64,000 bases of DNA from a virus: the IMG/VR virus record IMGVR_UViG_3300028625_000001, positions 32,001-96,000 of that record; one strand, given 5' to 3'. Positions 2,142 to 32,500 of this stretch are shown here, one piece after another (the stretch's first letter is position 1; every line of letters begins with the position of its first letter). Position numbers and translations under genes: made by a program. Below the pieces are notes generated by a model that worked only from the letters and a program-made list of their open reading frames with translations, had not been told where the DNA came from and did no database searches.

Positions 2142-3572
2142 ATGCCTAAAGAAGTCATTCAACAGAAGCAATTAAGGCCGTTTGTGAACGGTCATAATAT
2201 TTATCGTGCTGAAGAGAGCACCGGCTCACCGAGAATAACTGCCGCCAAGTCCGAAGAGCTCGGCGCGCCGAATATCCTTGGAGTCGATGTTGAAGAGATA
2301 AACTCTGACATAACACTCAGGATAAGAGAACAAGGTAGCCTTTATCCCTATCTTGCCATCTTTAAGGATTATTCCTACGACCTCGAAGAGGCCGCGCTTC
2401 CTACCTCACTTTCTACTCTTGATATGGTCTCAAGTTTTGCCAACTTCGTGTTCCCCGTTATCAAGAAAGAAGAAATAGGCGACCCGAAACCGACGATCTG
2501 GAGAAACTATGTCATGGATAAGGCAGGAGTTACCAGCATCGGCTGGAATTTCAACGTCGATGGTCCGAGCACGATTAACATCTCTCTTCAGGGGTCAAGC
2601 TACAAGATATTCAAAGATTCAGCCATCCTCGTGGAACGTCACGCGGCGGTGACGGCCGGAGCTGTTACGCCTGAGCAAACTCCGACGAAGGTTATTAGGG
2701 TTATAGCAGAAGGCCCAGAGGAAATAGCCGGAGAAGATATAACGGATGTTTGTTCCGTTGGCACTGGAACTATAGCAGTTGGCACGTTTAACGGAGAAAC
2801 CCCGACTATGGTTACGGTGGTATATTCTTATGAGCAAACTACCGGAGATCCCGCATTGTTTTATGGGAGAGTTCTCTCCGAGACCGTAGAGGCCGAAGGT
2901 GTCGATTCGCTTACTGTTACTCACAATGTCACCAACATCATTGGAGTCAGGACAACTGCCGGAGTAATTGTTGCCGGGCCGTGGACTATCGACTCTAAAG
3001 ACCCCAAAACCATTACCGGGGGTACGGTGGTTGCAGAAACAAGTTATGTAGTCAACTATATAACTGCGGACGAACCGGCGGGACTCCTTAGACAGGCGAC
3101 GAAAGGCAAAATCAAGATATACATGGCGGAAAGTTACGCTACGAAAGGCGGAAGACTCAGAGGGGTTTCTTCTGTAGCAGCGAATTGGGGATTAAACTCC
3201 GATAGCAGACAGGAGCTTGGAAGTGAAGATCCATATCTCACGATAGCCAACCTCCCGGCGGAAATCACCGTTGATCTATCACTTGATGAGACTGAAGACA
3301 TAGACACTTTCCTTGCCAAGATAATCGATGTCGGAGAAGACGATCCTCTTATCGACCTCAAGAACATTAACCATGACATGAATCTCTACGTTGAGGTTAT
3401 AGGTCTTGATGAATCTGGCGATGAAGAAGTTAAGTTGGTCTACAAGTTCCCGAGGCTCATGCTTACATCTACAAGTTCAAGTCTTGCCCTCGGCGGGACG
3501 GTCAACAGACCTCTCAGCTTTACTTCCGACGATGTAATAATCACGACAAACACTGAATTAAGTGGTTTATAA
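2142..3572 (+). CDS. putative major structural protein (major tail or sheath-like); function not proven
   Basis: 476-aa ORF with a strong RBS (AAGGGGGAG), followed by a strong intrinsic terminator as expected for a highly expressed structural gene. Function is inferred from position only. Confidence 0.5.
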   Translation: MPKEVIQQKQLRPFVNGHNIYRAEESTGSPRITAAKSEELGAPNILGVDVEEINSDITLRIREQGSLYPYLAIFKDYSYDLEEAALPTSLSTLDMVSSFANFVFPVIKKEEIGDPKPTIWRNYVMDKAGVTSIGWNFNVDGPSTINISLQGSSYKIFKDSAILVERHAAVTAGAVTPEQTPTKVIRVIAEGPEEIAGEDITDVCSVGTGTIAVGTFNGETPTMVTVVYSYEQTTGDPALFYGRVLSETVEAEGVDSLTVTHNVTNIIGVRTTAGVIVAGPWTIDSKDPKTITGGTVVAETSYVVNYITADEPAGLLRQATKGKIKIYMAESYATKGGRLRGVSSVAANWGLNSDSRQELGSEDPYLTIANLPAEITVDLSLDETEDIDTFLAKIIDVGEDDPLIDLKNINHDMNLYVEVIGLDESGDEEVKLVYKFPRLMLTSTSSSLALGGTVNRPLSFTSDDVIITTNTELSGL

Positions 3573-3598
3573 CGTCTCACTTTCCTTCTTATCTTATA

Positions 3599-3633
3599 GG
3601 GCTATCTATCTCGAATAGGTAGCCCCTTTTTTC
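3599..3633 (+). terminator. Rho-independent terminator
   Basis: 11-bp stem GGGCTATCTAT/ATAGGTAGCCC with a 5-nt loop, followed by CTTTTTTCT. Confidence 0.6.
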
Positions 3634-3651
3634 TAAAAAGGGGGTCTAAGC

Positions 3652-3903
3652 ATGATTGGACAAGACAAGATCCTTCACTTCATGTTTTCATTTATCATCG
3701 CTTTAGTCCTCGGTCTTTCAACCAGTTCTCCTATTCTTGGGTTTATGGGATCTCTGGGGATTGGTGGTGCGAAAGAGATTTATGATATGATCTCGCCCAC
3801 GGGCTTTGCTGAATTTGGCGACTTAATCGCCAATTCGATAGGGGCAGGAATTGCCACTATCTTATGCTATATAGCTCTAAAAGTCAATTCAGAAGCCAAA
3901 TAA
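3652..3903 (+). CDS. small integral membrane protein
   Basis: 83 aa with two or three hydrophobic Gly-rich segments. RBS is AAAGGGGG. Confidence 0.55.
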   Translation: MIGQDKILHFMFSFIIALVLGLSTSSPILGFMGSLGIGGAKEIYDMISPTGFAEFGDLIANSIGAGIATILCYIALKVNSEAK

Positions 3904-3923
3904 AAAAATTCTTTTCATATCAC

Positions 3924-3952
3924 TTGACAAATAAAAAGTCATGTGTTATATT
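3924..3952 (+). promoter_or_regulatory. sigma70-type promoter upstream of the tmRNA
   Basis: TTGACA, a 17-nt spacer, then TATATT. The -10 box ends about 44 nt before the tmRNA 5' end. Confidence 0.6.
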
Positions 3953-3995
3953 TAAGTTGTTGAAGGAAGACGGCTCATTGAAAAGTAAAAAAGTT

Positions 3996-4295
3996 GGGGA
4001 TGACAAGGTTTCGACAGGGCTGTACAAGTATTGACCTCATGCCGTCGAGAGACGTAAAACCTAAACTAAGAACTGACAACCCATTACTTGAAAGAGCGGC
4101 TGCTTAGTCGCTCCCCGTCCGAAAATTTCCTACTCTTATATCGGGTTACGGGTCATAAAGAGTAGGGCTACGAGCCCCAAGTTTGTGTAGAAGTTCTTGT
4201 TAAAAACTTCTATTCGCCTCCAAGCATAGGAAAGCATGTAAAGGGTCGGCATGGAACAGTTTTGGACCCGGGTTCGACTCCCGGCATCTCCACCA
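3996..4295 (+). ncRNA. ssrA: tmRNA (SsrA)
   Basis: 5' end is GGGGATGACAAGGTTTCGACAGGG. 3' end is GGACCCGGGTTCGACTCCCGGCATCTCCACCA (T-arm, acceptor and CCA). A candidate internal tag reading frame ends ...CCATTACTTGAAAGAGCGGCTGCTTAG (..PLLERAAA-stop). Confidence 0.85.
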
Positions 4296-4443
4296 GCTCT
4301 TTTGCCAGTGCACACCAGTAGAACGGAAAGACCTTTTTCATCAAACCTCCTTTCAAGCGGGGTCATGGTTTAGGCGGGGTTCGATTCCCCGCGGCCCCGT
4401 CAGAGTTGGACAAACTCATTACTGGCATTTCGTTTGAAAGAAC

Positions 4444-4517
4444 TGAGAGATAGTGTAATGGAAACACACTTGATTTTGGCTCAAGTGATATAGGTTCGAA
4501 TCCTATTCTCTCAGCCA
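4444..4517 (+). tRNA. tRNA-Gln (anticodon TTG), CCA encoded
   Basis: Hand fold: acceptor TGAGAGA/TCTCTCA, anticodon stem CTTGA/TCAAG with loop TTTTGGC, T-arm ATAGG-TTCGAAT-CCTAT, then discriminator G and CCA. Confidence 0.8.
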
Positions 4518-4568
4518 GTCTCATAAGAGACGACGGTGCTTGCAACTGAAACTCACCCCTAAAATAAA

Positions 4569-4647
4569 GCCGATGTCTTCTAAAAGGAAAGATAAGCTCC
4601 TGCCGTGAGAGGGGCAGAGAATGTGAGTTCGAATCTCACCATCGGCT
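4569..4647 (+). tRNA. tRNA, anticodon uncertain (possibly Gly-GCC)
   Basis: Acceptor GCCGATG/CATCGGC and T-arm GTGAG-TTCGAAT-CTCAC are clear. The anticodon region folds ambiguously. One fold gives loop CTGCCGT with a 3-bp stem and an 11-nt variable region. The other gives stem CTGCC/GGCAG with an 8-nt loop. Confidence 0.55.
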
Positions 4648-4730
4648 TTAGTTTTGTCGGCCACAAAACGTACAAACGTTTGTCTTGCAGAGCTACTTTT
4701 GTCGGGTCTTTTTACCCGGCAATTGTCGCT

Positions 4731-4772
4731 CGTCGGGGGGTGCCGGTCTTGGTGCCGACCCCCCGATATTTT
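4731..4772 (+). terminator. putative intrinsic terminator after the tRNA cluster
   Basis: TCGGGGGG...CCCCCCGA GC-rich stem followed by TATTTTTAT. Confidence 0.4.
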
Positions 4773-4787
4773 TATGGAGGAAGTGAG

Positions 4788-5480
4788 ATGCAAAAATTGA
4801 TAGTTGCGTTCGAAGGAATCGATGGTGCGGGAAAAACAACACAGATCCGAATGGCAGAGAGTTATCTTCAAGATAAGGGAGTTCTCTGTAAAAGGTTCCG
4901 AGAGCCTGGCGGCACAAAACTTGGCGAAACCTTAAGGGATATTATACTTAATAATCCTGATATAAACATCTATTCTGAGACAGCCCTATTTGCCATAGCC
5001 CGCCGGGAATTGATAGAAAATGAAGTTTGCAAAGCTGTGCAAAATGGCGAAATTATTTTACTCGATCGATCTTTCTATTCTTCTTTAGCTTACCAAGGAG
5101 TGCGTTTTGGCTATGATGGTACGTATATAGTGCGAGAAATCAATTACAGCATCCTTGGTGGATTAAAAGAATATCTTCCTACTCATATATTCTTCTTTGA
5201 CCTTTCGCCAGACATAGCCTTGGCAAGGATTGATAAAAGGGGACAACAGGCGACTCGTTTTGAAACATCTTCTGATGGGGATTATCTCAGTAAAGTTGCC
5301 GAGAAATATAAACTGGTTTTGTCCAGTTCCTGGAGTCCTATTGCCTCTGAGACTTTCTTTTTCAATGCAAACCAACCCCCTTCGACTATTTTTTTGAAAG
5401 TGAAGACCGTATTAGATTACCTTATTTTTCTACGAGAAACCGAGTTAGACCGAATACTAAAAAAGGAGGAGTCGGTGTGA
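4788..5480 (+). CDS. tmk: thymidylate kinase
   Basis: MQKLIVAFEGIDGAGKTTQ P-loop, a DRSFYSSLAYQG motif and a lid-region-like sequence. ATG 4788 follows a GGAGG RBS. The longer ORF from 4605 runs over a tRNA and is rejected. Confidence 0.85.
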   Translation: MQKLIVAFEGIDGAGKTTQIRMAESYLQDKGVLCKRFREPGGTKLGETLRDIILNNPDINIYSETALFAIARRELIENEVCKAVQNGEIILLDRSFYSSLAYQGVRFGYDGTYIVREINYSILGGLKEYLPTHIFFFDLSPDIALARIDKRGQQATRFETSSDGDYLSKVAEKYKLVLSSSWSPIASETFFFNANQPPSTIFLKVKTVLDYLIFLRETELDRILKKEESV

Positions 5481-5872
5481 CAAGAAAGAAGTTAATTCTA
5501 GTCCTTTCAGCTGTCGTAGTAGCCTTCATTATCACGGGCTGTGTGCAGATTACAGGACTTCCGAACCTAAGCGGTGCCTGGACTCTTACGATGAATCCAT
5601 ATGCTCAAGACATAGAGTTCGACATGACAGTTATCCAGGAAGAAGGTTCTTTATCCTTTGAGGCTGAGGCTGATAACCCTGCAATAATCGTGTCTGGCGG
5701 GGCAGTAACCTACAGCCCGATAAACAGAGTAGGGATGACGGTAACAGTTAATGGACATCTATACTCTCTGTTTGGGGAAGTGAAAACAGACCTACTGACT
5801 GGCTTTTTGCGAGACGGAGTTTATGGTGACGTAGTAGGCCATTGGTCTGCTACCAAAGGAGTGATGGAATGA
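5477..5872 (+). CDS. putative lipoprotein
   Basis: Signal peptide with lipobox (LSAVVVAFIITGC). GTG start overlaps the tmk stop. RBS is GGAGGAG. Confidence 0.65.
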   Translation: MTRKKLILVLSAVVVAFIITGCVQITGLPNLSGAWTLTMNPYAQDIEFDMTVIQEEGSLSFEAEADNPAIIVSGGAVTYSPINRVGMTVTVNGHLYSLFGEVKTDLLTGFLRDGVYGDVVGHWSATKGVME

Positions 5873-6492
5873 GAAAACTTGTATGTATTCTTACTCTTAT
5901 CCTGGTGGTGACATTAATCTTCGGCATAAAAATAGCTCCCTTTGTAGATGCTGACAGTTTTGGGAAGCTTGACGTGGGGGCGGAGCTCTTCCTTACCGAA
6001 GATATAGTAGACCTGTCTGTGAAAGGAGTATATGATGTTCCAGCAAAAGACCTATATCTTGACGGATTGCTCACCCTTAAAAACGACATAGGTTTTCTCA
6101 AAGTCAAAGGGAGTTATGAAACGACCGGTGCTTCACCTACGATAGGATTTTTGGCAACAACCTCACCACTAAAGCTTGATGTTTTTAGTATCTATGGAAT
6201 AGCTGGAACTGGAGATTTTAGAAACAACGATTTTGGCAACAAGGTGCTTGGGGACCTCTTGGCAGACAATAAAGCGCTCTCTGTGTTGGGGGGCGCGAAA
6301 CTAGGACTCGGTTATACGTGGTTTGATCTATCTGCTAAGTTGGAGGCTGGGTACTTTATAAAAGCTGAAGAATACCAGGTGGCTGCTATTGTTGATGGCA
6401 AGTTATTTACTCTGATTGATGTAAAAGCTAAACTTGTACTACTTCCTGAATTTTCATGGTCTGTCTTTGCGCAAACGACTTTTGAGTTCTAA
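5869..6492 (+). CDS. secreted, outer-membrane beta-barrel-like protein
   Basis: ATG 5869 overlaps the upstream stop (ATGA). It has an N-terminal signal-like segment (MRKLVCILTLILVVTLIFG), an alternating beta-strand-like pattern and a C-terminal ...TTFEF ending in Phe, as in OMP beta-signals. Confidence 0.5.
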   Translation: MRKLVCILTLILVVTLIFGIKIAPFVDADSFGKLDVGAELFLTEDIVDLSVKGVYDVPAKDLYLDGLLTLKNDIGFLKVKGSYETTGASPTIGFLATTSPLKLDVFSIYGIAGTGDFRNNDFGNKVLGDLLADNKALSVLGGAKLGLGYTWFDLSAKLEAGYFIKAEEYQVAAIVDGKLFTLIDVKAKLVLLPEFSWSVFAQTTFEF

Positions 6493-6507
6493 TTATTGAT
6501 TGAAAGT

Positions 6508-6629
6508 TGCCCCGTGGCGGAATGGTAACGCCTAGCAAAACGGTAGGTCGATACGGTGGGGGTGTCCCCGCCGTCCAAACAGCTCGGAAGAGTCTGGATT
6601 CGTTGTGGGTTCAAGTCCCACCGGGGCCG
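6508..6629 (+). tRNA. class-II (Leu-like) tRNA-like gene with an internal insertion of about 45 nt
   Basis: Leu-type D-arm GTGGCGGAATGGTAACGC, T-arm GTGGG-TTCAAGT-CCCAC and acceptor (T)GCCCCG/CGGGGC(C). The anticodon-region helix CCTAGC...GCTCGG encloses a 9-bp hairpin (ACGGTGGGG-GTGT-CCCCGCCGT). Total length is about 122 nt. Confidence 0.5.
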
Positions 6630-6637
6630 TTATATAT

Positions 6638-6715
6638 GGGTAGTTTAGGTTAAATTGGCAAACCGCTTTGGCTCATAAGCCAGAGAAGCGCGGGTTCAAA
6701 TCCCGTAACTGCCCA
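6638..6715 (+). tRNA. tRNA-Met family (anticodon CAT)
   Basis: Acceptor GGGTAGT/ACTGCCC, CTCATAA anticodon loop motif and T-arm GCGGG-TTCAAAT-CCCGT. The anticodon stem can extend to 7 bp, which would leave a 6-nt loop (unusual). Confidence 0.75.
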
Positions 6716-6720
6716 CAGAC

Positions 6721-6894
6721 TTGACGGTGGCGGAACTGGTAGACGCTATCGTGGCCTTTTGGCAACGCACAACAAAAGTGCGACCTTGCAGTTATATGAC
6801 TGTATTTGGTGGGGCTCGATGAGAAAACATCGAAAACAAACTTGCTAGAAGATAGACCCCAATCTTCGTATAGGTTCGAATCCTGTCCGTCAAG
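6721..6894 (+). tRNA. tRNA-Leu-like gene with a 91-nt internal insertion
   Basis: Perfect acceptor TTGACGG/CCGTCAA, Leu-consensus D-arm GTGGCGGAACTGGTAGACGC, long variable arm GAAGAT...ATCTTC and T-arm ATAGG-TTCGAAT-CCTGT. Helix TATCG...TGCTA brackets 91 nt (6752-6842) containing several hairpins. Confidence 0.5.
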
Positions 6895-6956
6895 TTAGTA
6901 ACTTTTCTCCTATCTAAGGAGGATTGGTCTATTTTTACAAGGGGGAGGGAACTGAA

Positions 6957-8378
6957 TTGATTGTAGAAGATTTAGTCGTTAAAGAATTATCCGTGGGCAA
7001 TTCATATTCAAAAGAAGGTGTCTTGGACAAAGACAGAGTTTTGACAGTTAGCAAGGTAAAAATCGGCGATAAGACTAGCAATGTTGAAACGATCGATGAG
7101 GAACGAAACGCTTATCTAAAGACCGTACACATTGGGACGCCGGAGTCTAGTATTGAGATCATTGACGAGGACGGCAACGTCCTTCAGAGGCTCCCGGTTG
7201 GCGCTCCGGCGATAGCCACCGCCGCTTCAACCGACTTAACAATCTCTGGTGGAGTATCTAACGGAGAACTAATCGTTATTGGCGACTCTATTATTGAAGT
7301 CAATGACACGACCGCCAGTGATGAAGGTTATGAGCTCCTTAATACTGCCGAAGGAACGAAGACACAGGCCAGCGGTGAAATTACCGTGAGTGCTGCCCCA
7401 GCACACCTCGATTATGTCCAGGTCGGGGAAGACATATACGTTATGGACCTTATTGGAGACGGAGTGAGCGCGGGGGCTATCCAGGTCGATCTTTCAGCTT
7501 TTTATGAAGCTTCAACTGCTACCCTCGCTTTTTCAGACGTAGTATCCGATGGGGAAGTTGTAGAAATCAACGGAGTTAGTTTTGAGTTTGATACCGACGG
7601 CGAGATCACCGAAGGAAATGTAAGAGTTTGGATTGGCGCAAACACCACTGCGGGCGCTGCAATTATTGCTCTCGCTTCAGTTATCAGAGGCAACACGGCT
7701 TGTGGCGTCAATGCAGTCGATGGTGACGGAGACACTTTGGTTGTTACAGCTAGAACATTAGGTACTGTCGGCGACGCCATTACTGTTTCTACCACCTGCG
7801 CGAACGCCTCCTGGGGCGTTGATGTAACCCATCTTGCAGATGGAGCCAGTGCAACTCCCGCAGAGACCATAGCGGCTATTGTGGCAGCTTCTGCCGGTGG
7901 AACGGAAGCCGTTACCATAACTGCCGGTGAAGGCGACGATGCAGGCAAATTACTTATTGCCGCAACTGCCGCTGGTGTTCTTGATGGATCTGCCGGTAAC
8001 TCATGTGTGCTTGCGGTTTCCGGGGCTGGATTTACAGCAAGCGCTTCTACTCTTGAGGGAGGCACCGACATGACGGCAGCCGAGGCTATAGCGGCCCTTG
8101 ACGGAGTAGAGCTCCCTGAAGCAACTCTTGAGGCTGGTGAAGGACTTGTGGCAGTTACAGCCAACGAAGCTGGAGTCGCGGGAAACGCGATTGAAGTCTC
8201 TACGACTATGGAAAATGCCGCCTTTGATGGTGAATACCTTGAGGGCGGCATTGACGGCGGGGAATATACGGAAGCCGATGCGAGAATTGCCAGATATGCC
8301 GACGGTTATCTATATATAGGCGAATGGGTAAACGGGGCAATGAAATGGTATGCCTGGCAGGGGACTGCCTTGAACTAA
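6957..8378 (+). CDS. Ala/Gly/Thr-rich repeat protein (possible virion decoration or fibre protein)
   Basis: Long ORF. TTG 6957 lies 7 nt after GGGGGAGGG, while the ORF-track start at 6924 has almost no RBS spacing. Internal repeats include VVTARTLGTVGDAITVSTTCANASWG and VAVTANEAGVAGNAIEVSTTMENAAFDG. GC is visibly higher than in the flanks. Confidence 0.6.
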   Translation: MIVEDLVVKELSVGNSYSKEGVLDKDRVLTVSKVKIGDKTSNVETIDEERNAYLKTVHIGTPESSIEIIDEDGNVLQRLPVGAPAIATAASTDLTISGGVSNGELIVIGDSIIEVNDTTASDEGYELLNTAEGTKTQASGEITVSAAPAHLDYVQVGEDIYVMDLIGDGVSAGAIQVDLSAFYEASTATLAFSDVVSDGEVVEINGVSFEFDTDGEITEGNVRVWIGANTTAGAAIIALASVIRGNTACGVNAVDGDGDTLVVTARTLGTVGDAITVSTTCANASWGVDVTHLADGASATPAETIAAIVAASAGGTEAVTITAGEGDDAGKLLIAATAAGVLDGSAGNSCVLAVSGAGFTASASTLEGGTDMTAAEAIAALDGVELPEATLEAGEGLVAVTANEAGVAGNAIEVSTTMENAAFDGEYLEGGIDGGEYTEADARIARYADGYLYIGEWVNGAMKWYAWQGTALN

Positions 8379-8390
8379 AGAGCAACGAGT

Positions 8391-8460
8391 AAGCGGGAAA
8401 GCTCATTGGAGAGCGCCCTAACAGATGGGGAGGTTGTGGGTCCGAATCCCGCCTCGCTTA
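8391..8460 (+). tRNA. tRNA-like gene, non-canonical (anticodon unresolved; CAG in the best hand fold)
   Basis: Acceptor AAGCGGG/CTCGCTT, D-arm GCTC-ATTGGA-GAGC and T-arm GTGGG-TCCGAAT-CCCGC. The anticodon stem has only 4 bp (CCCT/GGGG), and the loop AACAGAT has no U at position 33. Confidence 0.45.
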
Positions 8461-8483
8461 CTAGATTAGTTAGGGGGGAGAAC

Positions 8484-8609
8484 ATGATAAAGCGATTGAC
8501 TAATTGGTTCAAACGTCAGTGGAAGAAAGATATTGCGATAAACAGACAGCATACAGAAAGCATATATAACGCGTCGGACATTTTCGGAATCCCAGGAATA
8601 AGAGGTTAG
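8484..8609 (+). CDS. possible 41-aa basic peptide
   Basis: ATG 8484 lies 4 nt after AGGGGGGAG. Short, no homology inferable. Confidence 0.25.
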   Translation: MIKRLTNWFKRQWKKDIAINRQHTESIYNASDIFGIPGIRG

Positions 8610-8613
8610 GAGT

Positions 8614-8657
8614 AGGAGCGTAACTCAGTTGGTTAGAGTGCTGATCTGATACGTCAG
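8614..8657 (+). pseudogene. 5' portion of a tRNA-Ile (GAT)-like gene, lacking variable loop, T-arm and 3' acceptor
   Basis: AGGAGCG-TA-ACTC-AGTTGGTTA-GAGT-G-CTGAT-CTGATAC-GTCAG gives acceptor 5' strand, D-arm and a complete anticodon arm. No matching T-arm or CGCTCCT 3' acceptor was found on either side of the IscB element. Confidence 0.5.
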
Positions 8658-8897
8658 TCAACGACCCACGGCTAAAGCCGGGAGCTTGTAGCTCTTGTTG
8701 ACCAGCTTGAGTGTTTTGAGCACTACGTTACGGGTGAATACATAGGCACTCCGGGGTGACGCCACCAGCCCCGGACACTGCGGTGAATGATTAAACAGGT
8801 TGAGGGTCTAAACCAGTGTTGTTCACATTAAACCACTTGATAACATTGGCGAGGTGGACTTTACCGGCGTATGCCGAGAATTGAGAGGTAACTATCT
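8658..8897 (+). ncRNA. candidate IscB omega RNA (HEARO-like) scaffold
   Basis: A 240-nt non-coding, GC-rich region directly upstream of iscB with several hairpins (CGGC-TAAA-GCCG, GAGCT-TGT-AGCTC, CCGGGG-N12-CCCCGG). This position matches known IscB omega RNAs. No covariance model was run. Confidence 0.5.
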
Positions 8898-10151
8898 ATG
8901 CAACGTGTATTTGTAGTTGACAAAAACAGAGAGCCACTGATGCCGTGTCATCCAGCGCGGGCAAGGGAATTACTAAAAAATAGACGGGCAAAAGTGTTAC
9001 GCCGCTACCCGTTCACCATCATCCTGCTGGACCGTGAGGGTGGTGATGTACAACCAGTTGCATTGAAGATTGACCCGGGTAGCAAAACTACAGGGTTGGC
9101 GCTGGTCGCTGATGGCCAGCGTGGGAAACGCGTGGTATGGGCAGGCGAACTTAACCACCGTGGAGAACAGATAAAAGCAAGTATGCTGTCAAGAAAACAG
9201 TTGCGGCGTGCACGCAGATCACGTAAGACTCGCTACCGTCAGCCGCGTTTCGACAATCGCCGCCGGGCCGAGGGGTGGATACCGCCGTCGCTGCGAAGTC
9301 GCGTGGACAACGTGTTGACATGGACAGAACGATTGCGTAGGTTCACACCTATCTGCGCCGTGAGTATGGAGTTGGTGAAATTTGACACACAGGCTATGCA
9401 AAACCCGGAAATCAGTGGTATTGAGTATAAACAAGGCGAATTGATGGGATATGAAGTGCGTGAGTATTTGCTTGAAAAGTTTGGTCGAAGGTGTGCTTAT
9501 TGCGGAGCGACTGGCGCGCCACTAGAAATCGAACATATTATTCCAAAGTCTCGTGGTGGGTCAAATAGGGTAAGCAACCTAACACTGTCTTGTACCGTAT
9601 GTAATCAGCATAAAGGCAATCAGACGGCAACAGAGTTCGGACATCCAACAATTCAGGACAAAGCGAAGCAACCATTGAAAGATGCGGCGGTTATGAATAC
9701 AACACGTTGGACACTTTATCGCAGCTTAAAACAATTAGGCTTACCAATGGAAGTCGGTACTGGTGCACGGACTAAATACAATCGAGTACGACAGAATTAT
9801 CAGAAAGAACACTGGATTGACGCAGCCTGCGTGGGTGTAAGCGGAGAAAAAGTGTATATATCTTCTGGCACAATACCACTGGTTATTAAGGCTACCGGTC
9901 GCCAGTCACGTATCATGTGTCGCCCGGATAAGTACGGTTTCCCGCGCACGAAAGCTAAACAAGGCCGTGTTCACTACGGTTTCCAGACGGGCGACATCGT
10001 GCTGGCAACAATTCCTGAAGGTAAACATACCGGGGTACATATTGGACGTGTGGCAGTTCGTAACAGACCATCGTTTCGACTGAACGATTTTGATGTACAT
10101 CCAAAATACTTAAAAGTTTTGCATCATTCAGACGGCTACAGTTATCAGTGA
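8898..10151 (+). CDS. iscB: IscB, an RNA-guided RuvC/HNH nuclease (OMEGA system)
   Basis: PLMP domain (DKNREPLMPCHPARARELLKNRRAKV), RuvC-I (LKIDPGSKTTGLALV), Arg-rich bridge helix (RRARRSRKTRYRQPRFDNRRR), RuvC-II (VSMELVKFD), HNH with two CxxC pairs (CAYCG..LEIEHIIPKSRGGSNRVSNLTLSCTVCNQHKGN) and RuvC-III (EHWIDAACVG). At 417 aa it fits compact IscBs. Confidence 0.88.
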   Translation: MQRVFVVDKNREPLMPCHPARARELLKNRRAKVLRRYPFTIILLDREGGDVQPVALKIDPGSKTTGLALVADGQRGKRVVWAGELNHRGEQIKASMLSRKQLRRARRSRKTRYRQPRFDNRRRAEGWIPPSLRSRVDNVLTWTERLRRFTPICAVSMELVKFDTQAMQNPEISGIEYKQGELMGYEVREYLLEKFGRRCAYCGATGAPLEIEHIIPKSRGGSNRVSNLTLSCTVCNQHKGNQTATEFGHPTIQDKAKQPLKDAAVMNTTRWTLYRSLKQLGLPMEVGTGARTKYNRVRQNYQKEHWIDAACVGVSGEKVYISSGTIPLVIKATGRQSRIMCRPDKYGFPRTKAKQGRVHYGFQTGDIVLATIPEGKHTGVHIGRVAVRNRPSFRLNDFDVHPKYLKVLHHSDGYSYQ

Positions 10152-10209
10152 AAGGAGGGAGCGCCATTCCTCACCGCGCTAAAGCACGGTGTCCCCTGGC
10201 GCAATTTCT

Positions 10210-10476
10210 ATGGGAATAAAAGCAAAGACGTTGTGGGTGCACGTTAGGTCTTCAGGTTCATATCAGGCATTGTACATTAACGGAATTAAAGAAATCGAAG
10301 GCGAACAAATAGACATTGTTGAAGCTTTTGACCTCTTGGCCGAAAGAACGAATAACGAAGCCTATATCCTCGATTATACATACGAAGACATAGACGAGGA
10401 AGAAGATCCTTTTGATAATGCAGTAGATCGTGACTTCGATTTCCCGGAATCGCTTGACAAAAAGGACGTTATATAG
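10210..10476 (+). CDS. hypothetical acidic protein
   Basis: ORF with internal ATG 10210 (MGIKAKTLWV...) and a highly acidic C-terminus. The start is uncertain (ORF track gives 10189). Confidence 0.45.
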   Translation: MGIKAKTLWVHVRSSGSYQALYINGIKEIEGEQIDIVEAFDLLAERTNNEAYILDYTYEDIDEEEDPFDNAVDRDFDFPESLDKKDVI

Positions 10477-10560
10477 CAGATAGGGTAGTTTATTCTGCAA
10501 GATGGTCAAAATAAAGAACAAAACTAGAGTTTTGCAGAATAATGCAGAAAAGAAAAACGC

Positions 10561-10689
10561 GGGCGCATGGCAAAATTGGCAGATGCTATCGTGACCGAAA
10601 GGTTAGGAGTCTCGTGAGTGAACACGTGAAAAAGCTCGCTAGAATGGGGATCTTGACCATTCGTACAGGTTCGAATCCTGTCGCGCCCA
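10561..10689 (+). tRNA. class-II (Leu-like) tRNA-like gene with an internal insertion of about 45 nt
   Basis: Acceptor GGGCGCA/CGCGCCC (A7-C66 mismatch), D-arm GCA-AAATTGGCAGA-TGC, variable arm GAATGG...CCATTC and T-arm ACAGG-TTCGAAT-CCTGT. Helix TATCG...CGCTA brackets hairpins GACC-GAAA-GGTT and CGTG-AGTGAA-CACG. Confidence 0.5.
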
Positions 10690-11004
10690 TTAGACCCCGG
10701 CAGGGTCATATTAAACCAGAGAGCAGTTAAGTCTTTCTGTACCAATAGCCGGGTGCAGTCTCTGTTGTAATCCGTTGGCCCGTTTCAGGTACAGAGACGA
10801 AGCAGAAGCGGGCATAAAATTAACCTCCATATCGGACCTTCCGATGGACGCATCGAGAACGGCTAACCGGTATGGCAGAATTGATCCCCACGTCCGCCCT
10901 GCATGTCGACGGGCAGTGATAGGTCAACGGGCGTGGTAGTTAATCCGCGGGACAGTACGCCGAGCCGCTGAAAGGGAAAGTCCTTATGTGACCGGAGTAC
11001 GAGC

Positions 11005-11075
11005 AGAGGGGTAGCTTAATAGGTAAAGCTGATCTCATCCATGGATGTATGCAGGTTCGAATCCTGCTCCCTTTG
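11005..11075 (+). tRNA. tRNA, probably Gly (TCC), with an atypical anticodon loop
   Basis: Acceptor AGAGGGG/TCCCTTT (two G-U pairs), D-arm GCTT-AATAGGTA-AAGC and T-arm GCAGG-TTCGAAT-CCTGC. The loop at canonical numbering is CATCCAT, with A at position 33. Confidence 0.55.
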
Positions 11076-11089
11076 CTAGAAGGAGTTGG

Positions 11090-11620
11090 TTGGTTGTGTT
11101 TTTTAGAAAAACGTTGAAGGAAATAATTTCCAAGATTACCAAGGGGAATTTAGTAATATGCAACAAGGTCAAGTATGTAGAAGAGGCCGTCAACGACGAA
11201 CGCCAATTGATATATGGTCTTAGCGGCGAGATAAAAGCGCTTCGAGATGCGATAGTAGAGAACCCTTTTGCTAATCCTCAAAAGGGGAATTTATCTATCC
11301 AACAAGAAGTGTATATAGAACACAGCGACGGGGCTAGGGAAAAGACGGACGAACTCCGCCGCTTAGTCCTTGGAGCAACTTATAAACATTTCAAAGGAGA
11401 CAACTATAGAGTCCTTGGACTTGCAAAACACCACGAAAGCGGCGAAATACTGGTAATTTACCAGATGGTATATAACTACCTAAACACTTATTTGTCGATA
11501 GCTACCGTCGGCGAAATCTATGCCCGGCCAATAGATGACTTTCTTTGTCTGGTAGAGCGCGACGGGGAAGTTAAACAAAGATTCCAGCTTATAAGCGAGC
11601 TGAGAAAGGAGGAGACATGA
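11090..11620 (+). CDS. DUF1653-like domain protein
   Basis: YKHFKGDNYRVLGLAKHHESGEILVIYQ matches the DUF1653 signature. The start is TTG 11090 or GTG 11096 after AGGAG. The ORF-track start at 11045 lies inside the tRNA. Confidence 0.55.
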   Translation: MVVFFRKTLKEIISKITKGNLVICNKVKYVEEAVNDERQLIYGLSGEIKALRDAIVENPFANPQKGNLSIQQEVYIEHSDGAREKTDELRRLVLGATYKHFKGDNYRVLGLAKHHESGEILVIYQMVYNYLNTYLSIATVGEIYARPIDDFLCLVERDGEVKQRFQLISELRKEET

Positions 11621-11889
11621 ACGGCGCTAAGGAATATGCAGAGAAATATTTTATAGCAATCAGTGGATATGAAACAGATGTTCGTTACGCCTTAAACATT
11701 GCTTTCTTTAGGAGACTGGCGGTAAGAATGGGCGCCGCCGATGATCCCGATGCGGACGCGCTTCTTAAAAAAGGCGATGAGTTCTATAAAGAAAACAGAG
11801 ATGAAATATTAAAGGCATTACGGGCGAATCCATCTTGGACATCAGAAGAAGAAGCATATATAGAAAAAGAAATAACGGGAGGGAATTGA
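11617..11889 (+). CDS. hypothetical protein
   Basis: 90-aa ORF with RBS GGAGGAG and an ATGA overlap with the upstream gene. Confidence 0.55.
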   Translation: MNGAKEYAEKYFIAISGYETDVRYALNIAFFRRLAVRMGAADDPDADALLKKGDEFYKENRDEILKALRANPSWTSEEEAYIEKEITGGN

Positions 11890-11891
11890 GA

Positions 11892-12245
11892 TTGACTAAA
11901 CGTTTTTGCGATCATTGCGGTGAAGCGATCCCTGACAAAGATAGTTTTTATACCGTTGAACTTAACGGCAAGCAGTATGATTTTTGTTCTATAGCCTGTC
12001 ATGAGGCGTTCGTCGCCGCACATAAAGATGAGATCGAAAAGCATCAGCTTGAAAGAAGAAACAAAGAGCTTGACAAAAGACATAAGGAACTTGAGGCAAG
12101 GATTCATAAGTTAGAAGAGCGAATCTCTTCTCTTGAAATGATGGAAATGTGGAAGGAATTTTTCCCTGTGCAATTCCCTGACTTGCAAGTTGCCTCGGAT
12201 ACTAATGAGAGCGCCAGACTCCCCTTTGTTACTTATACCCTTTAG
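11892..12245 (+). CDS. zinc-ribbon (TRASH/MYM-like CxxC..CxxxC) plus coiled-coil protein
   Basis: FCDHCGEAIP...FCSIACHEAF followed by a heptad-rich KHQLERRNKELDKRHKELEARIHKLEERISSLE. TTG 11892 lies 8 nt after GGGAGGG (start uncertain; 11886 is also possible). Confidence 0.5.
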   Translation: MTKRFCDHCGEAIPDKDSFYTVELNGKQYDFCSIACHEAFVAAHKDEIEKHQLERRNKELDKRHKELEARIHKLEERISSLEMMEMWKEFFPVQFPDLQVASDTNESARLPFVTYTL

Positions 12246-12255
12246 CAAAATACAG

Positions 12256-12329
12256 GGCGAGGTAGAGTAGCGGCCACTCGAAGGTCTCATAAGCCTTATA
12301 GGAGGGTTCAACTCCCTCCCTCGCTCCCA
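12256..12329 (+). tRNA. tRNA-Met family (anticodon CAT), CCA encoded
   Basis: Acceptor GGCGAGG/CCTCGCT, D-arm GAGT/ACTC, anticodon arm AAGGT-CTCATAA-GCCTT and T-arm GAGGG-TTCAACT-CCCTC, then C and CCA. Confidence 0.8.
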
Positions 12330-12382
12330 GGATAGGCATCTTACATACCCGAAAGTAACTTACTCAAGAGTATCTTGTTTGC

Positions 12383-12468
12383 GGCGGGGTAGTCTAATTG
12401 GCAAGGCAGCGGTCTTGAAAACCGTCGGGCGAAAGCCTTTGAGAGTTCGACTCTCTCTCCCGCCGCCA
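12383..12468 (+). tRNA. tRNA-Ser (anticodon TGA), CCA encoded
   Basis: Acceptor GGCGGGG/TCCCGCC, anticodon arm GCGGT-CTTGAAA-ACCGT, long variable arm with GGC-GAAA-GCC and T-arm GAGAG-TTCGACT-CTCTC, then G and CCA. Confidence 0.8.
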
Positions 12469-12490
12469 GAAAAGATTAGGAGATGAATAG

Positions 12491-12952
12491 GTGAACCCCT
12501 TTTTTAAGTATCTGAAATACCTGCTAAAACATCGTTGGTACGTATTTGTCGAATGTTGTAAGTTAGGAATTCCTTGGCGAGGTTTAACACATGACATAAG
12601 CAAGTTCCTGCCTGATGAATGGATTCCTTATATGCGACATTTCTACATGTCATACATAACCAGACCGGAATGGAAGACGCAATATAACATTGCATGGCTT
12701 AAACATCAAAACCGAAACAGACACCATTGGCAATATTGGCTACTCTGGAAAGATAGCGGCAAGGTCTTACCTCAAGAAATGCCAATGAGATACCGAAAAG
12801 AGATGTTGGCAGATTGGCGTGGCGCCGGACGCGCCATTACCGGGCGAGACGACACAAGAGAGTTCTACCTAAAGAATAAAGACAATATAACTCTCGCACC
12901 AGAAACTAAACGATGGGTAGAGGCAAAATTAGGGATAGATCGATCGAATTAA
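12491..12952 (+). CDS. hypothetical protein (Trp/His-rich)
   Basis: 153-aa ORF with a GTG start 8 nt after AGGAG. Confidence 0.55.
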   Translation: MNPFFKYLKYLLKHRWYVFVECCKLGIPWRGLTHDISKFLPDEWIPYMRHFYMSYITRPEWKTQYNIAWLKHQNRNRHHWQYWLLWKDSGKVLPQEMPMRYRKEMLADWRGAGRAITGRDDTREFYLKNKDNITLAPETKRWVEAKLGIDRSN

Positions 12953-12962
12953 AGGAGGGATA

Positions 12963-13262
12963 ATGCCGTGGCTTAACTTCTATTTTTGGAGGGAACCCAT
13001 GAGCAGAAGCTATACAAAAGCAGTCAGGATTCATCGAGGAAAACCTAAAACGGCCAGAAAGAACAACGCAAGAGTTTGTAGACGGAAAGTAAAACAGTTT
13101 ATCAAAGGCAGGAAGTTGGATAAGGCTGCAAGCTACGCTGGGAAAGACCACTATTCAACATTCTACGAGGTTTGGGAATTAAAGGCTGTCTGGTTTGTAG
13201 AAGAACTCTATAACTGGATATATAAAGGGAAAGAAAGTCTAAAAAAGCTTAGAAGTAAATAG
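12963..13262 (+). CDS. hypothetical basic protein
   Basis: 99-aa Lys/Arg-rich ORF with RBS AAAGGAGGG. Confidence 0.5.
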   Translation: MPWLNFYFWREPMSRSYTKAVRIHRGKPKTARKNNARVCRRKVKQFIKGRKLDKAASYAGKDHYSTFYEVWELKAVWFVEELYNWIYKGKESLKKLRSK

Positions 13263-13354
13263 TTAGGTTCGTCGAAGAGGGGTAAGTTTCAATGAGAGCA
13301 ATCATGTTCTCAATGCGACTTACCCTCATTTTTTATCAACAGGAGGCTTTTAAA

Positions 13355-13813
13355 ATGGAAGTCTTTTATAGCAACAAGTTATTGACAATCGCCTTATCCA
13401 TAGTCTTTCTTCTATTGTGTGGAAACTTTTCATTATCAACCTACATGCTCAACGCTCCGCCTCTAGTTATTAGAGGGGATCTCTCTGGCGCGAAAGTCGC
13501 CTATGGCTCCGCTCCGGCAGCGTTTCAGTCTCTCTTTACTATTCATCTTAATGAGAAAGTCGGAAATTATACAACCATCAGGCATGAGTATCAACACTAT
13601 ATACAAAGTGCCCTATTAACTCCATTTGGTGCGGCGATAGGCTATCAATGGCAGCGATGCATATTGGGCAAAAGCTACAATGAGAACTGGTTTGAACTAG
13701 ACGCAGACCGGGCAAGAGAAGACGGCCTGATGTTTGATGTTTTTGTCTGGAACACTAAAGAACTTGTCACCATAATACCAGGACAATACTACTTCGATCT
13801 AGGGGTGGAATAA
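13355..13813 (+). CDS. membrane protein with HExxH motif (putative metalloprotease-like)
   Basis: ATG 13355 follows CAGGAGG. It has an N-terminal TM segment and a RHEYQHYIQSALLTPFG motif. Confidence 0.5.
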   Translation: MEVFYSNKLLTIALSIVFLLLCGNFSLSTYMLNAPPLVIRGDLSGAKVAYGSAPAAFQSLFTIHLNEKVGNYTTIRHEYQHYIQSALLTPFGAAIGYQWQRCILGKSYNENWFELDADRAREDGLMFDVFVWNTKELVTIIPGQYYFDLGVE

Positions 13814-29514: not shown

Positions 29515-32500
29515 ATGAACACCCTTGATAAATATGTTCAAAAACATATAGTGAAATACAGTGGCGCAGGCCCGATAAGTAAAGGCGGCGGGGCTTCTTC
29601 TAATCTATCTATGAGTCTTGACACTGCCGCACTCGCGGGCAGGATAGACGATATTGAAGAACAACTCAAGCTGATTGCCGCATCTCTTAAGAATTATCAT
29701 ACGCTTTCAATTACTTTCGAGAATATAGACCTCCCACTGGTAGATATACATGTCAGCGGAGGAATGGCGGTCTTAAGTGGCTATACAGAAGTTATACCTG
29801 AGACTACGATAACCGTAGACACTTCTTTGTGGGTTGCAGGAGTCAACAAGTATATCGTTTGGTATAACGGGACGATCGTTGTTGCCGATGAAATACTTGA
29901 GGGATATAAGTTACTTGCCTACATAATAATTCCCGAAGATTGGGACGGAACGGTAAGTAATTCATATAAAGACGGCGCGGCTTATATTTCTATTGCCGGA
30001 CCGATAGATGAACTCGATCCCTATTATGGAGAGGTACTGATCCTTGAGCTCGATGCGGAGGCCGGTCCTTTCTTCTGTATTGTCCATGCTTCGTGGGACC
30101 CCCTTGGATCTCCCGATGTTTCTCACTATATCCTTTCTTATACAATAGACGGGAATAACTGGGAGAATATAAGCACGGCGAACCCCGCGGCAAGCTTCGA
30201 GGCCCCGCACAACATCCAAGTCGCAGCCAAGGTCCAGGCCGTGTTCAATAATGGAAGAAAAACTCATTGGTCGGCGACAGAAATTATTCAGACCCCCGGC
30301 GACGACACCATTCCCCTGCCTGTAACAGGTCTTGAGGTCACAAGTCAGTTTGGAATAATTAAAGCTATCTGGGATGAGAGTACAGATATAGACTTTGATA
30401 CGTTTGAAATACAGGTAGCTAGAGACGATCAATTCACAGACCCGGAAGTCACTTTTACCACAAACACCAGCTATGCCTTTGCGGGAGAACCGGAAGCTAC
30501 TTACTATATAAGGGTAAGAGTTATAGACTACTCTAGCAATACTTCTTTGTGGTCTGACACTATAGAGATTGAAACGGTTATGGGCGACGGGAATACTCCC
30601 GCGGCCCCCACTGGGCTAACCCTCGTCCCAATTCTTGAAGACGAGACTTCATACATAACTGCTACGTGGGATAGGAACGAAGAATTAGATATAGTCAGTT
30701 ATGAATTAGCTATCAGCTATGACCAGACTAATTGGGTAGACTACCAGACGCCAAAAACAACCAAGACCATAGAAGTAGTCGGCGGAGTCACCCTTTACGC
30801 AAAAGTAAGGGCTTTAGACAATGAGGGGTTAGTCTCTGCATGGTCCGATATTGTAGAAACAACCACAGCACATGACACTGAAGCGCCTAATATTCCAGTA
30901 GGATTAACTATTACCAATAGTTTTGGTATAGTGTACTTTACCTGGACTGCCAATGGAGAAGCCGACTTTAGTCATTATATAATTCAGATATCTCAAACCG
31001 ATCAATTCTCTACCTATGACGAGGTTATCCAAAGGACAAATAGCTATAGTTTCTCAGGAATCCCGGGGACAACTTATTATGTAAGAATTAAGTCTGTGGA
31101 TTACTCCGGGAATGAGTCAGACTGGTCTTCAATCGCAAGCACGACGGTAACAGCCGGAGACGGGCAGCCGCCCGCGACCCCCACGGGGCTTAGTCTGACA
31201 ACCTATCTTCAATCTTATAGCAGCTATATAGAAGCGACATGGGATGAGAACGAAGAGGTAGACTTACTCGGTTATCAAATAGCCTGGTCGCTCGACCAGT
31301 TGAAATGGAATATACTGTCTGTCAATTCTCCAGAAGCAAATTTTTCTGTCCCGGGCAACAGCACAATCTATGTTAAGGTCAAAGCGCTTGATGTCGAAGG
31401 GTTGGCCTCTCAATGGAGCGACGCAGAAAGCATAACCAGCACAGAGGACGAAGAAGCCCCGGCAACCCCCGTTCTCTTATCAAACATTCCCCTTTACGCT
31501 AGGGCGTTGATAGAGATAGAAGAGCAGGAAGAGTCAGACTTTAGTCACTTTCTTGTCTCTTATAAAGATAGGAGCTTTACGACTTCTACAACCAACATCG
31601 AGATTCCCCTAGACCCTGGAGAATCAGGGGTGTCCGTCTCTATTAAAGCCGTCGATCTTAGCGGAAACGAGTCCCCGGCACTCGCGGTGTCCGCCTCCGC
31701 CAGAACATTGTCGGAAGCTGAAGAAGAGTTCTTTGAACTAATCAACAAGGTTCATGGAGGATCTACCAATACAGAGACTATAGCCTATATAACCGACGAT
31801 CTGGTAGACCATATGAACATCACAAAGCCGACGGCTTTTGATCGCTCCGGGCTACTTAAAGACGATGTATACGACACTATCGACAGGATAGACAACATAG
31901 ATTATGGAGATTTAACCCTCCCGATGGAAAGCGTCTTTGAGAGAATCGATACCGATTTTATAAGTGTCGGCAGCTCACTATTCGAGGCCCGCTCAAAGAT
32001 ATTCGATATAGAGATCGGTGGAGAAATAAAGAATATAGACGAGTGGGTCGGAGTAATAAACACCGACGTTTCAGATATTACAACCAGGATAGACTTCATA
32101 AACTATGGCGAACTGACAGGGACAATAGAAACCGTTCTCGGTTCCGTTTATTCGAATGTCTCCGCTATATCCGAGAAAATCTACGACATAGTTATCGGAG
32201 AAATAACTCTTGATATAGATGAATGGATAGACCAGATCAATAGTGATCTATCGGGAGTTATGACAAGAATAAATGCGGTAGTCTATGGCTCTCTTACCGA
32301 CACTATTGAAGATGTCCTCGCCGCCGTGCATGGAGATATATCAGGGATAGAGACAAAGGTTTTCGACATTGAGATCGGCGAAGTAACTCACGACATAGAT
32401 GAGTGGATGGGGTTGCTTAACGGAGACGTCGCGGGAATTATCAGCCGCCTTGAGAATGTGTCATATAACGAAACCATAGACACGATCGAGACGCAGATCG

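Follow-up and report, generated by a model that had tools for sequence, protein, structure and literature searches.

An IscB transposon joined to a truncated tRNA-Ile(GAT) gene in a phage tRNA cluster

The 5' half of a tRNA gene that runs directly into the scaffold of an RNA-guided nuclease raises two questions: how the two came to be joined, and whether a guide drawn from a tRNA points at anything beyond its own locus. Such a fusion begins at position 8614 of a 64,000-nucleotide stretch of viral DNA (the window; IMG/VR record IMGVR_UViG_3300028625_000001, positions 32,001 to 96,000). Reading the letters alone, the original prediction offered two explanations: an IscB element that had inserted into a tRNA-Ile gene, or a nuclease programmed against tRNA-Ile(GAT)-like loci. 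The comparison with sibling phages and with other copies of the element makes it highly probable that the locus is an IscB transposon in the tRNA cluster of a tailed phage, with its left end (LE) at a canonical ATGG, its right end (RE) fused to a truncated tRNA-Ile, a guide derived from the flank, and a predicted function of the retention type.

The IscB element, its ends and its family

The element is a non-autonomous IscB element of the IS200/IS605 family and occupies positions 8657 to 10209 of the + strand, with the RE, on the omega-RNA side, at 8657 and the LE at 10209. Its omega-RNA scaffold (8657 to 8864, + strand) matches the Rfam family HEARO (RF02033) over model positions 1-211 of 211 at 134 bits, against a gathering score of 83. 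The first helix of the omega RNA consists of GUCAACGA (8657-8664) and UUGUUGAC, which lies about 30 nt downstream. The subterminal hairpin of the RE, CCCACGGC-TAAA-GCCGGGAG (8665 to 8684, + strand), doubles as the first hairpin inside the omega RNA, and equivalents are present in the copies of contigs L001 and L011. The iscB gene (8898 to 10151, + strand) encodes 417 aa with a PLMP motif, RuvC-I (D59), HNH (H213), and RuvC-III (H305/D308), the residue positions being read off the translation. The protein has Pfam matches to RRXRR (3e-74) and HNH (1.9e-13), and matches the solved structures of TbaIscB (1.8e-47) and OgeuIscB (2.9e-29). The LE has a subterminal hairpin as well, CACCGCGC-TAAA-GCACGGTG (10172 to 10191, + strand), 18 nt before the element end. 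It is followed by the transposon-adjacent motif ATGG (10210 to 10213, + strand), which is the start codon of an 88-aa ORF at 10210-10476. The far side of the element had been expected from about 10203 onward; this is corrected to an element end at 10209 and an adjacent motif at 10210-10213.

Both ends are fixed by comparison with other copies. The copy in L011 is homologous over 8656-10213 at 84%. The 5' flanks in L011, L001, L016/L018/L033/L034, L032, and L014 are unrelated to one another and all stop exactly at GTCAAC, and these five flanks place the RE at 8657. For the LE boundary, the 18-mer at the 3' terminus served as the probe and brought up nine further stretches. The 3' end reads ...GCGCAATTTCW or ...GCGCAATT(Y)..., and is followed by ATGG in nine of ten independent copies and by ATGA in one, so that the A at motif position 1 is invariant. 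In the set of copies at window 10210 and in L001, L011, and L015-L022, the ATG of the motif opens an ORF of at least 56 aa at 7/10 sites. Copies of the family are inserted between the ribosome-binding site and the ATG of a downstream ORF (7/10 with an ORF of at least 56 aa), and insertion at this point parts the downstream gene from its ribosome-binding site.

Over its last ~60 nt the element has 83-92% identity to the ends of elements with TnpA (Y1, HUH) and TnpB on the opposite strand (L019-L023), which identifies this end as an IS200/IS605 LE. In the IMG/VR contigs L015, L017, and L019-L023, the ~60-nt LE followed by ATGG is found on IS605-type elements with TnpA (Y1) and/or TnpB on the opposite strand. 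The occurrence of LE and ATGG on both kinds means that IscB and TnpA/TnpB elements have one left end and one target motif in common. A 323-nt miniature, in which the omega RNA (HEARO, 131.8 bits) is joined to the LE without iscB, is present in L016 (3406-3729), L018 (3991-4314), L033, and L034, and sits between a ribosome-binding site and an ATGG start codon. Neither TnpA nor TnpB was detected in the 64-kb window by tblastn, and the window holds no second copy of the element.

Of the features expected of an IS200/IS605 IscB element, the following are found: the IscB protein, an upstream omega RNA on the same strand at the RE, subterminal hairpins with the LE, and the adjacent motif. Scarless insertion is seen for the L011 copy when it is compared with the window, but not for the window's own copy, where 140-153 nt are missing. 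By every sequence criterion tested, save a scarless site of its own, the element is an IS200/IS605-family IscB-omega RNA element; the missing stretch concerns the history of the site and not the nature of the element.

The layout agrees with described systems. IscB reads towards the LE, the omega RNA begins at the RE, and the RE flank serves as the guide (Meers et al., 10.1101/2023.03.14.532601). The lack of a TnpA is usual, since most IscB elements are non-autonomous, and an orientation bias is reported for them (10.1101/2023.03.14.532601). Like ISGst5/GstIscB (Meers et al. 2023) and OgeuIscB, the window element has the PLMP, RuvC, and HNH features, an RE-bounded HEARO-type omega RNA upstream of the gene, a guide given by the RE flank, subterminal hairpins, a motif beside the LE, no TnpA in cis, and gene-less miniatures in its family. 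Its ATGG agrees with positions 1-4 of the OgeuIscB motif NWRRNA. Unlike both systems, it lies in a phage tRNA cluster, its RE flank is a truncated tRNA, its site did not arise by insertion only, and the ATGG of its family coincides with start codons in most copies.

An argument from base pairing between the LE guide and the motif, by the IS608 rule, was also considered. GGGA against CCAT fits the window; the L001 copy does not fit, and the argument was dropped.

The intact gene in sibling phages and the missing stretch

The GenBank phage collection, searched in near and distant modes, contains no relative of the locus, and the sole relevant match is the HEARO region of the huge-phage record LR756508. 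A search of IMG/VR with the upstream 473-aa protein also gave no relative. Sibling contigs were recovered through a protein search with the upstream 473-aa ORF, contig look-ups, a metagenome scan for the anticodon-arm 19-mer, and homologues of the 88-aa protein. The original prediction had proposed to look in related genomes for an intact tRNA-Ile, and this is what the siblings have. Seven contigs (L005, L009, L011, L014, L035, L036, and L037), free of the element there, hold a complete tRNA-Ile(GAT) exactly at the syntenic site. ARAGORN calls all seven genes, and the four that were scored with Rfam (L005, L009, L011, and L014) reach 68-70 bits.

The remnant in the window (8614 to 8658, + strand) covers tRNA positions 1 to 42-44 and so comprises acceptor 5' strand, D arm, and anticodon arm. 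The letters of 8614-8657 divide into AGGAGCG/TA/ACTC/AGTTGGTTA/GAGT/G/CTGAT/CTGATAC/GTCAG, with the anticodon GAT. The first 45 nt of the complete tRNA-Ile(GAT) in L009, L014, L036, and L037 are identical to window 8614-8658 (45/45), and the 5' part of the gene in L005, L011, and L035 is nearly so. The remnant is therefore homologous and syntenic to bona fide tRNA-Ile genes at the same locus. The acceptor 5' strand, D-arm, and full anticodon arm (loop CTGATAC) that had been read from the letters of 8614-8657 are borne out, and the identity with the siblings shows that the resemblance is not due to chance.

The window agrees with L009, L014, L036, and L037 through ...CTGATACGTCAGT, after which the siblings continue with GGGCGAAGGTTCAAATCCTTCCGCTCCTACCA and the window with CAACGACC..., the start of the omega RNA. 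HEARO model position 1 falls on 8657, in keeping with the earlier statement that the tRNA 5' half adjoins the scaffold. The GT at 8657-8658 is common to the tRNA and the element start, which leaves the junction ambiguous by 2 nt. On either side of the element, the window is collinear with the 113-kb contig from which L011 comes, at 95% over window 6000-8658 and at 98% over 10210-13354. Downstream of the tRNA-Ile, five siblings (L011, L014, L035, L036, and L037) have a spacer that includes a ribosome-binding site (aaggag), and next to it the ATGG with which the 88-aa gene starts. The distance from ...ACGTCA to ATGG is 153 nt in L011 and 140 nt in L014. Compared with the siblings, the window thus lacks a stretch of 140-153 bp, from tRNA position 42 up to the ATG at 10210, which comprises the tRNA 3' part, the spacer, and the ribosome-binding site. 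The loss of this stretch accounts for the fusion of tRNA and element, and leaves the tRNA-Ile as a dead remnant, neither a split nor a hidden gene.

A loss of this kind is not usual for the family. The window has the empty site for the IscB copy of L011 at 13335 to 13358 (+ strand), in which 20 nt identical to the RE flank of that copy are followed by ATGG. Window 10210-13354 matches 2877-6020 of the reverse complement of L011, and window 13354-16196 matches 7577-10417, with the element in between. At 13354|13355 the window reads ...ggaggcttttaaa|ATGGAAGTC, and L011 has GTCAACGACC...GCGCAATTTCA inserted there with nothing lost. That a copy with 84% identity went in cleanly here, where the window is unoccupied, shows that the family normally inserts without deletion.

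At the window's own site the LE junction is canonical, the element being followed by ATGG, and the RE junction is not the partner that belongs to this site. The original prediction that the element inserted into and truncated a tRNA-Ile gene is therefore right as to the truncation; it is not right as to a simple insertion, since 140-153 bp are lost and the LE lies at a canonical ATGG. The most likely history is that the element first inserted canonically at spacer|ATGG, and that the flank on the RE side was then lost back to the tRNA. A nick by TnpA at the RE boundary could explain why the deletion would start exactly there. Junction homology on the RE side is limited to the 2-nt GT, and a deletion that stops exactly at the RE boundary is a coincidence unless a TnpA nick initiated it. 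Searches for intermediate alleles, by way of the exact 88-aa protein and of its homologues, brought up nothing but empty sites and the fused allele; an element with an intact tRNA upstream and an element with the tRNA 3' part behind it were both absent from them.

The sibling GTGG beside the tRNA junction is a 3/4 match to the motif and hints at insertion into the tRNA instead. On the reversed order, which is tentative and somewhat unlikely, the element would have inserted in the tRNA-Ile at the near-cognate ACGTCA|GTGG (CCAC| on the TnpA strand), and the flank on the LE side would then have been lost. One route would be homologous recombination with a second copy at the neighbouring canonical ATGG, removing the tRNA 3' part and the spacer. 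Recombination of two direct copies would yield the observed junctions exactly and would need no coincidence, and both ends of the missing stretch are motif-like in the siblings, which have GTGG on the tRNA side and ATGG where the gene starts. Such an insertion would nevertheless break with the A that is found at motif position 1 in 10/10 independent copies. Flexible or erroneous boundary choice by TnpA is documented, and a second HEARO-type RE in L014 adjoins another tRNA-like gene at a site continuing ATGA. Among the alleles recovered, however, the tRNA 3' part never follows the element, and tandem copies were not seen. Joining through a TGGG microhomology would predict ...tttctGTGGGAAT, against the observed ...tttctATGGGAAT; with a junction base of A and not G, a TGGG microhomology deletion on the LE side is ruled out.

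The guide and its possible targets

IscB guides are about 16 nt in length. The predicted omega-RNA guide, CTGATCTGATACGTCA (8641 to 8656, + strand), lies directly 5' of HEARO position 1 and corresponds to the anticodon stem-loop, tRNA positions 27-42. The proposal that the guide position coincides with the anticodon arm of tRNA-Ile thus holds by position. Its tRNA origin follows from the rule that an IscB guide is the sequence beside the RE, and a flank-derived guide is the default architecture of IscB systems and not special to this element. An IscB beside its RE-flank guide is likewise the ordinary layout of such elements, and what is unusual here is the neighbouring deletion. The unusual feature of the locus is this adjacent loss of 140-153 bp, which destroyed the tRNA and changed the guide.

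A sigma-70 promoter scan upstream of the omega RNA gave nothing above the shuffle expectation. The omega RNA probably comes from read-through of the co-oriented tRNA cluster, and such a source is consistent with the orientation bias reported for IscB elements.

Judged from the sequences, a perfect match and the canonical motif occur together at one target only, the donor joint of the element itself, ...ACGTCA|ATGG.... TnpA supplied in trans would excise the element and leave this joint, and a cut there followed by repair from a sister copy would reinstall the element. The 64-kb window carries no TnpA, and excision and the donor joint are accordingly hypothetical for this locus. Cut-and-copy retention of this kind is shown for IscB and TnpB (Meers et al., 10.1101/2023.03.14.532601).

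The tRNA-Ile of the siblings matches the guide at 16/16 in all seven contigs and continues with GTGGGC, GTGGTC, or GTGAGC (GTGR). With GTGR in place of ATGG, these genes are at best secondary targets. It had been asked whether the sequence after the guide match in an intact tRNA-Ile equals the sequence beyond the element, and the two agree only in part (GTGGGC/GTGGTC/GTGAGC against ATGGGA). The guide-matching sequence is present in the siblings, which lack the element at this site, and is followed by the element in the carrier. An unrelated AT-rich contig (L013, 168-243) has a different tRNA-Ile(GAT), with the acceptor GGGCGTG and the same anticodon arm, followed by GTGGCC; the guide matches it at 16/16.

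The guide has no other match in the window with up to 2 mismatches. The tRNA 19-mer has no match in IMG/VR and none in 185,579 GTDB species genomes, and the guide followed by NTGG has 3 hits in GTDB, all of them non-tRNA and, by estimate, close to the number expected by chance. A host tRNA is therefore unlikely as a target, and the original prediction of a guide against tRNA-Ile loci of the host finds no support in the 0 matches of the 19-mer and the 3 non-tRNA hits of guide and NTGG in these genomes.

The alternative is that the tRNA-derived guide works on other phage genomes. IscB would then cut the tRNA-Ile of co-infecting siblings, and repair would copy the element and co-convert the deletion, in the manner of an RNA-guided analogue of SegB. 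This is considered unlikely. The guide matches at 16/16 in the seven siblings and in the unrelated tRNA-Ile of L013, and homology arms at 95-98% lie on both sides. The same guide would, however, follow from the flank whatever its function. The target-adjacent sequence is GTGG or GTGA, against an A at position 1 in all ten element copies; the OgeuIscB motif NWRRNA (PMC12660989) has N at this position and would be in favour. The window has a perfect protospacer with a canonical ATGG for the IscB of the L011 copy, which makes homing between phages plausible in the lineage, and the tRNA-fused allele is identical across many samples. There is also a precedent in SegB of T4, a free-standing homing endonuclease of a tRNA gene region (Brok-Volchanskaya et al. 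2008, as cited in PMC13565253). A guide-directed attack on sibling phages is possible on the sequence evidence. The fuller version is about as unlikely: the deletion would have re-programmed the guide onto the siblings' tRNA-Ile(GAT), and IscB would tolerate G at position 1 and spread itself and the deletion by repair, with the L011 copy as the converse case at 13335-13358.

The window IscB resembles SegB in location and potential target only, with a nuclease gene in a phage tRNA cluster and the tRNA gene of relatives as the potential target. The outcome expected would be like that of SegB, with preferential inheritance of the nuclease-bearing allele and co-conversion of the flanks. In contrast, SegB is a protein-guided GIY-YIG enzyme with demonstrated activity, whereas the window IscB is predicted to be RNA-guided and the motif beside its tRNA target is off-consensus.

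Integrases at tRNA 3' ends, tRNA introns, and IStrons also join a mobile element to a tRNA gene. An integrase duplicates the tRNA 3' end and so restores it, and introns and IStrons are removed by splicing. Unlike in these systems, the 3' part of the window tRNA is gone. No ribozyme was detected at the window element, and with the 3' part gone the tRNA is inactivated.

The locus is a natural before/after series for an IscB transposon in a phage lineage, made up of seven empty-site alleles, a sibling copy with its empty site in the window, gene-less miniatures, and TnpA/TnpB elements with the same LE. The series fixes the element ends and the ATGG motif without experiment. It also indicates that a flank deletion can alter what an IscB guide points at. 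If GTGG is tolerated, the locus would offer a natural example of allele replacement between competing phages that is driven by an RNA-guided nuclease, and the ecological role of phage-borne IscB and TnpB would be directly testable. If cutting between phages does occur, IscB elements would be RNA-guided weapons of homing or marker exclusion between sibling phages. If GTGG is not tolerated, the locus comes down to an ordinary transposon and the accidental loss of a phage tRNA gene that was dispensable.

The tRNA remnant and neighbouring RNA features

Two further readings of the tRNA piece fare far worse. In the first, the tRNA still works, either because the gene is split or permuted and its 3' half lies elsewhere, or because the first hairpin of the omega RNA serves as its T arm; or else the junction is an assembly artefact. 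ARAGORN calls six tRNA/tmRNA genes in the window and none at 8614-8658. The covariance search for a complete tRNA-Ile with a missed fold gave 21.7 bits (E 0.28) with the Rfam tRNA model, below the threshold of 29 bits. Neither program, nor a window-wide search for the 3' half, reveals a complete cloverleaf with a T arm and a 3' acceptor strand. The acceptor complement CGCTCCT has zero occurrences on the + strand of the 64-kb window, and GGTTCAAATCCTTCCGCTCCTA, the T arm and acceptor of the intact gene, has no match there with up to 3 mismatches. The original statement that the T-arm and 3' acceptor are missing is thereby extended to the whole window. Folding of the tRNA fragment together with the scaffold start is not distinctive (z -1.4). 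The fused allele is 100% identical in at least seven independent assemblies from JGI, Logan, and ENA, which argues against an assembly artefact. A working tRNA or an artefact is therefore extremely improbable, even though the Rfam tRNA model stretches to 8690, since its score is sub-threshold, the 3' half is absent from 64 kb, and the same junction recurs in all three assembly sources.

The second reading, which makes the tRNA-like 5' piece a part of the mobile element that travels with the omega RNA and acts as its conserved leader or processing signal, is scarcely credible: adjacency alone favours it, together with the known capture of flanks through alternative RE boundaries, but the copies in L011, L001, L016/L018/L033/L034, and L032 have unrelated flanks up to GTCAAC with no tRNA nearby, and the fragment and 2.6 kb upstream of it are collinear with siblings that hold the whole tRNA in place. 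Synteny and the flanks of the other copies thus rule out that the element carries the tRNA fragment along, be it as a leader or as a passenger.

The surrounding cluster has several unusual RNA features. At its head lies a phage tmRNA (window 3996-4295; Rfam 108.9 bits) with the tag peptide VKPKLRTDNPLLERAAA. The tRNA at window 6638-6716 (L011, 9633-9711) has an 8-nt anticodon loop, in which ARAGORN reads an anticodon of 4 bases (cata in the window, caca in the sibling). A weak tRNA-like gene at window 8392-8459 scores 28.3 bits, against 36.7 in L011 and 32.9 in L005; it has no ARAGORN call, and its anticodon loop varies among the siblings. In L014 (1440-1661), the start of a HEARO-like RE, which scores 26.7 bits over model positions 1-52 only, adjoins the antisense strand of this weak tRNA-like gene at ...CTCTCCA|. 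The intact sequence continues ATGAGC after this point. The lineage thus has, in L014, a second junction of element and tRNA, and the rest of that element lies beyond the end of the contig.

Downstream of the element, window 10561-10689 (also L011, 7062-7190) matches the tRNA model at 29.3 bits with a 65-nt insertion between the anticodon-arm halves, and the sibling has conserved it. This could be a phage tRNA with an intron or with some other interruption. The 315-nt non-coding stretch that follows, at window 10690-11004 between two tRNA genes, has no Rfam match even at E up to 10. Its fold has a z of -2.7, with 1 of 100 shuffles as good, and it may be an undescribed structured RNA.
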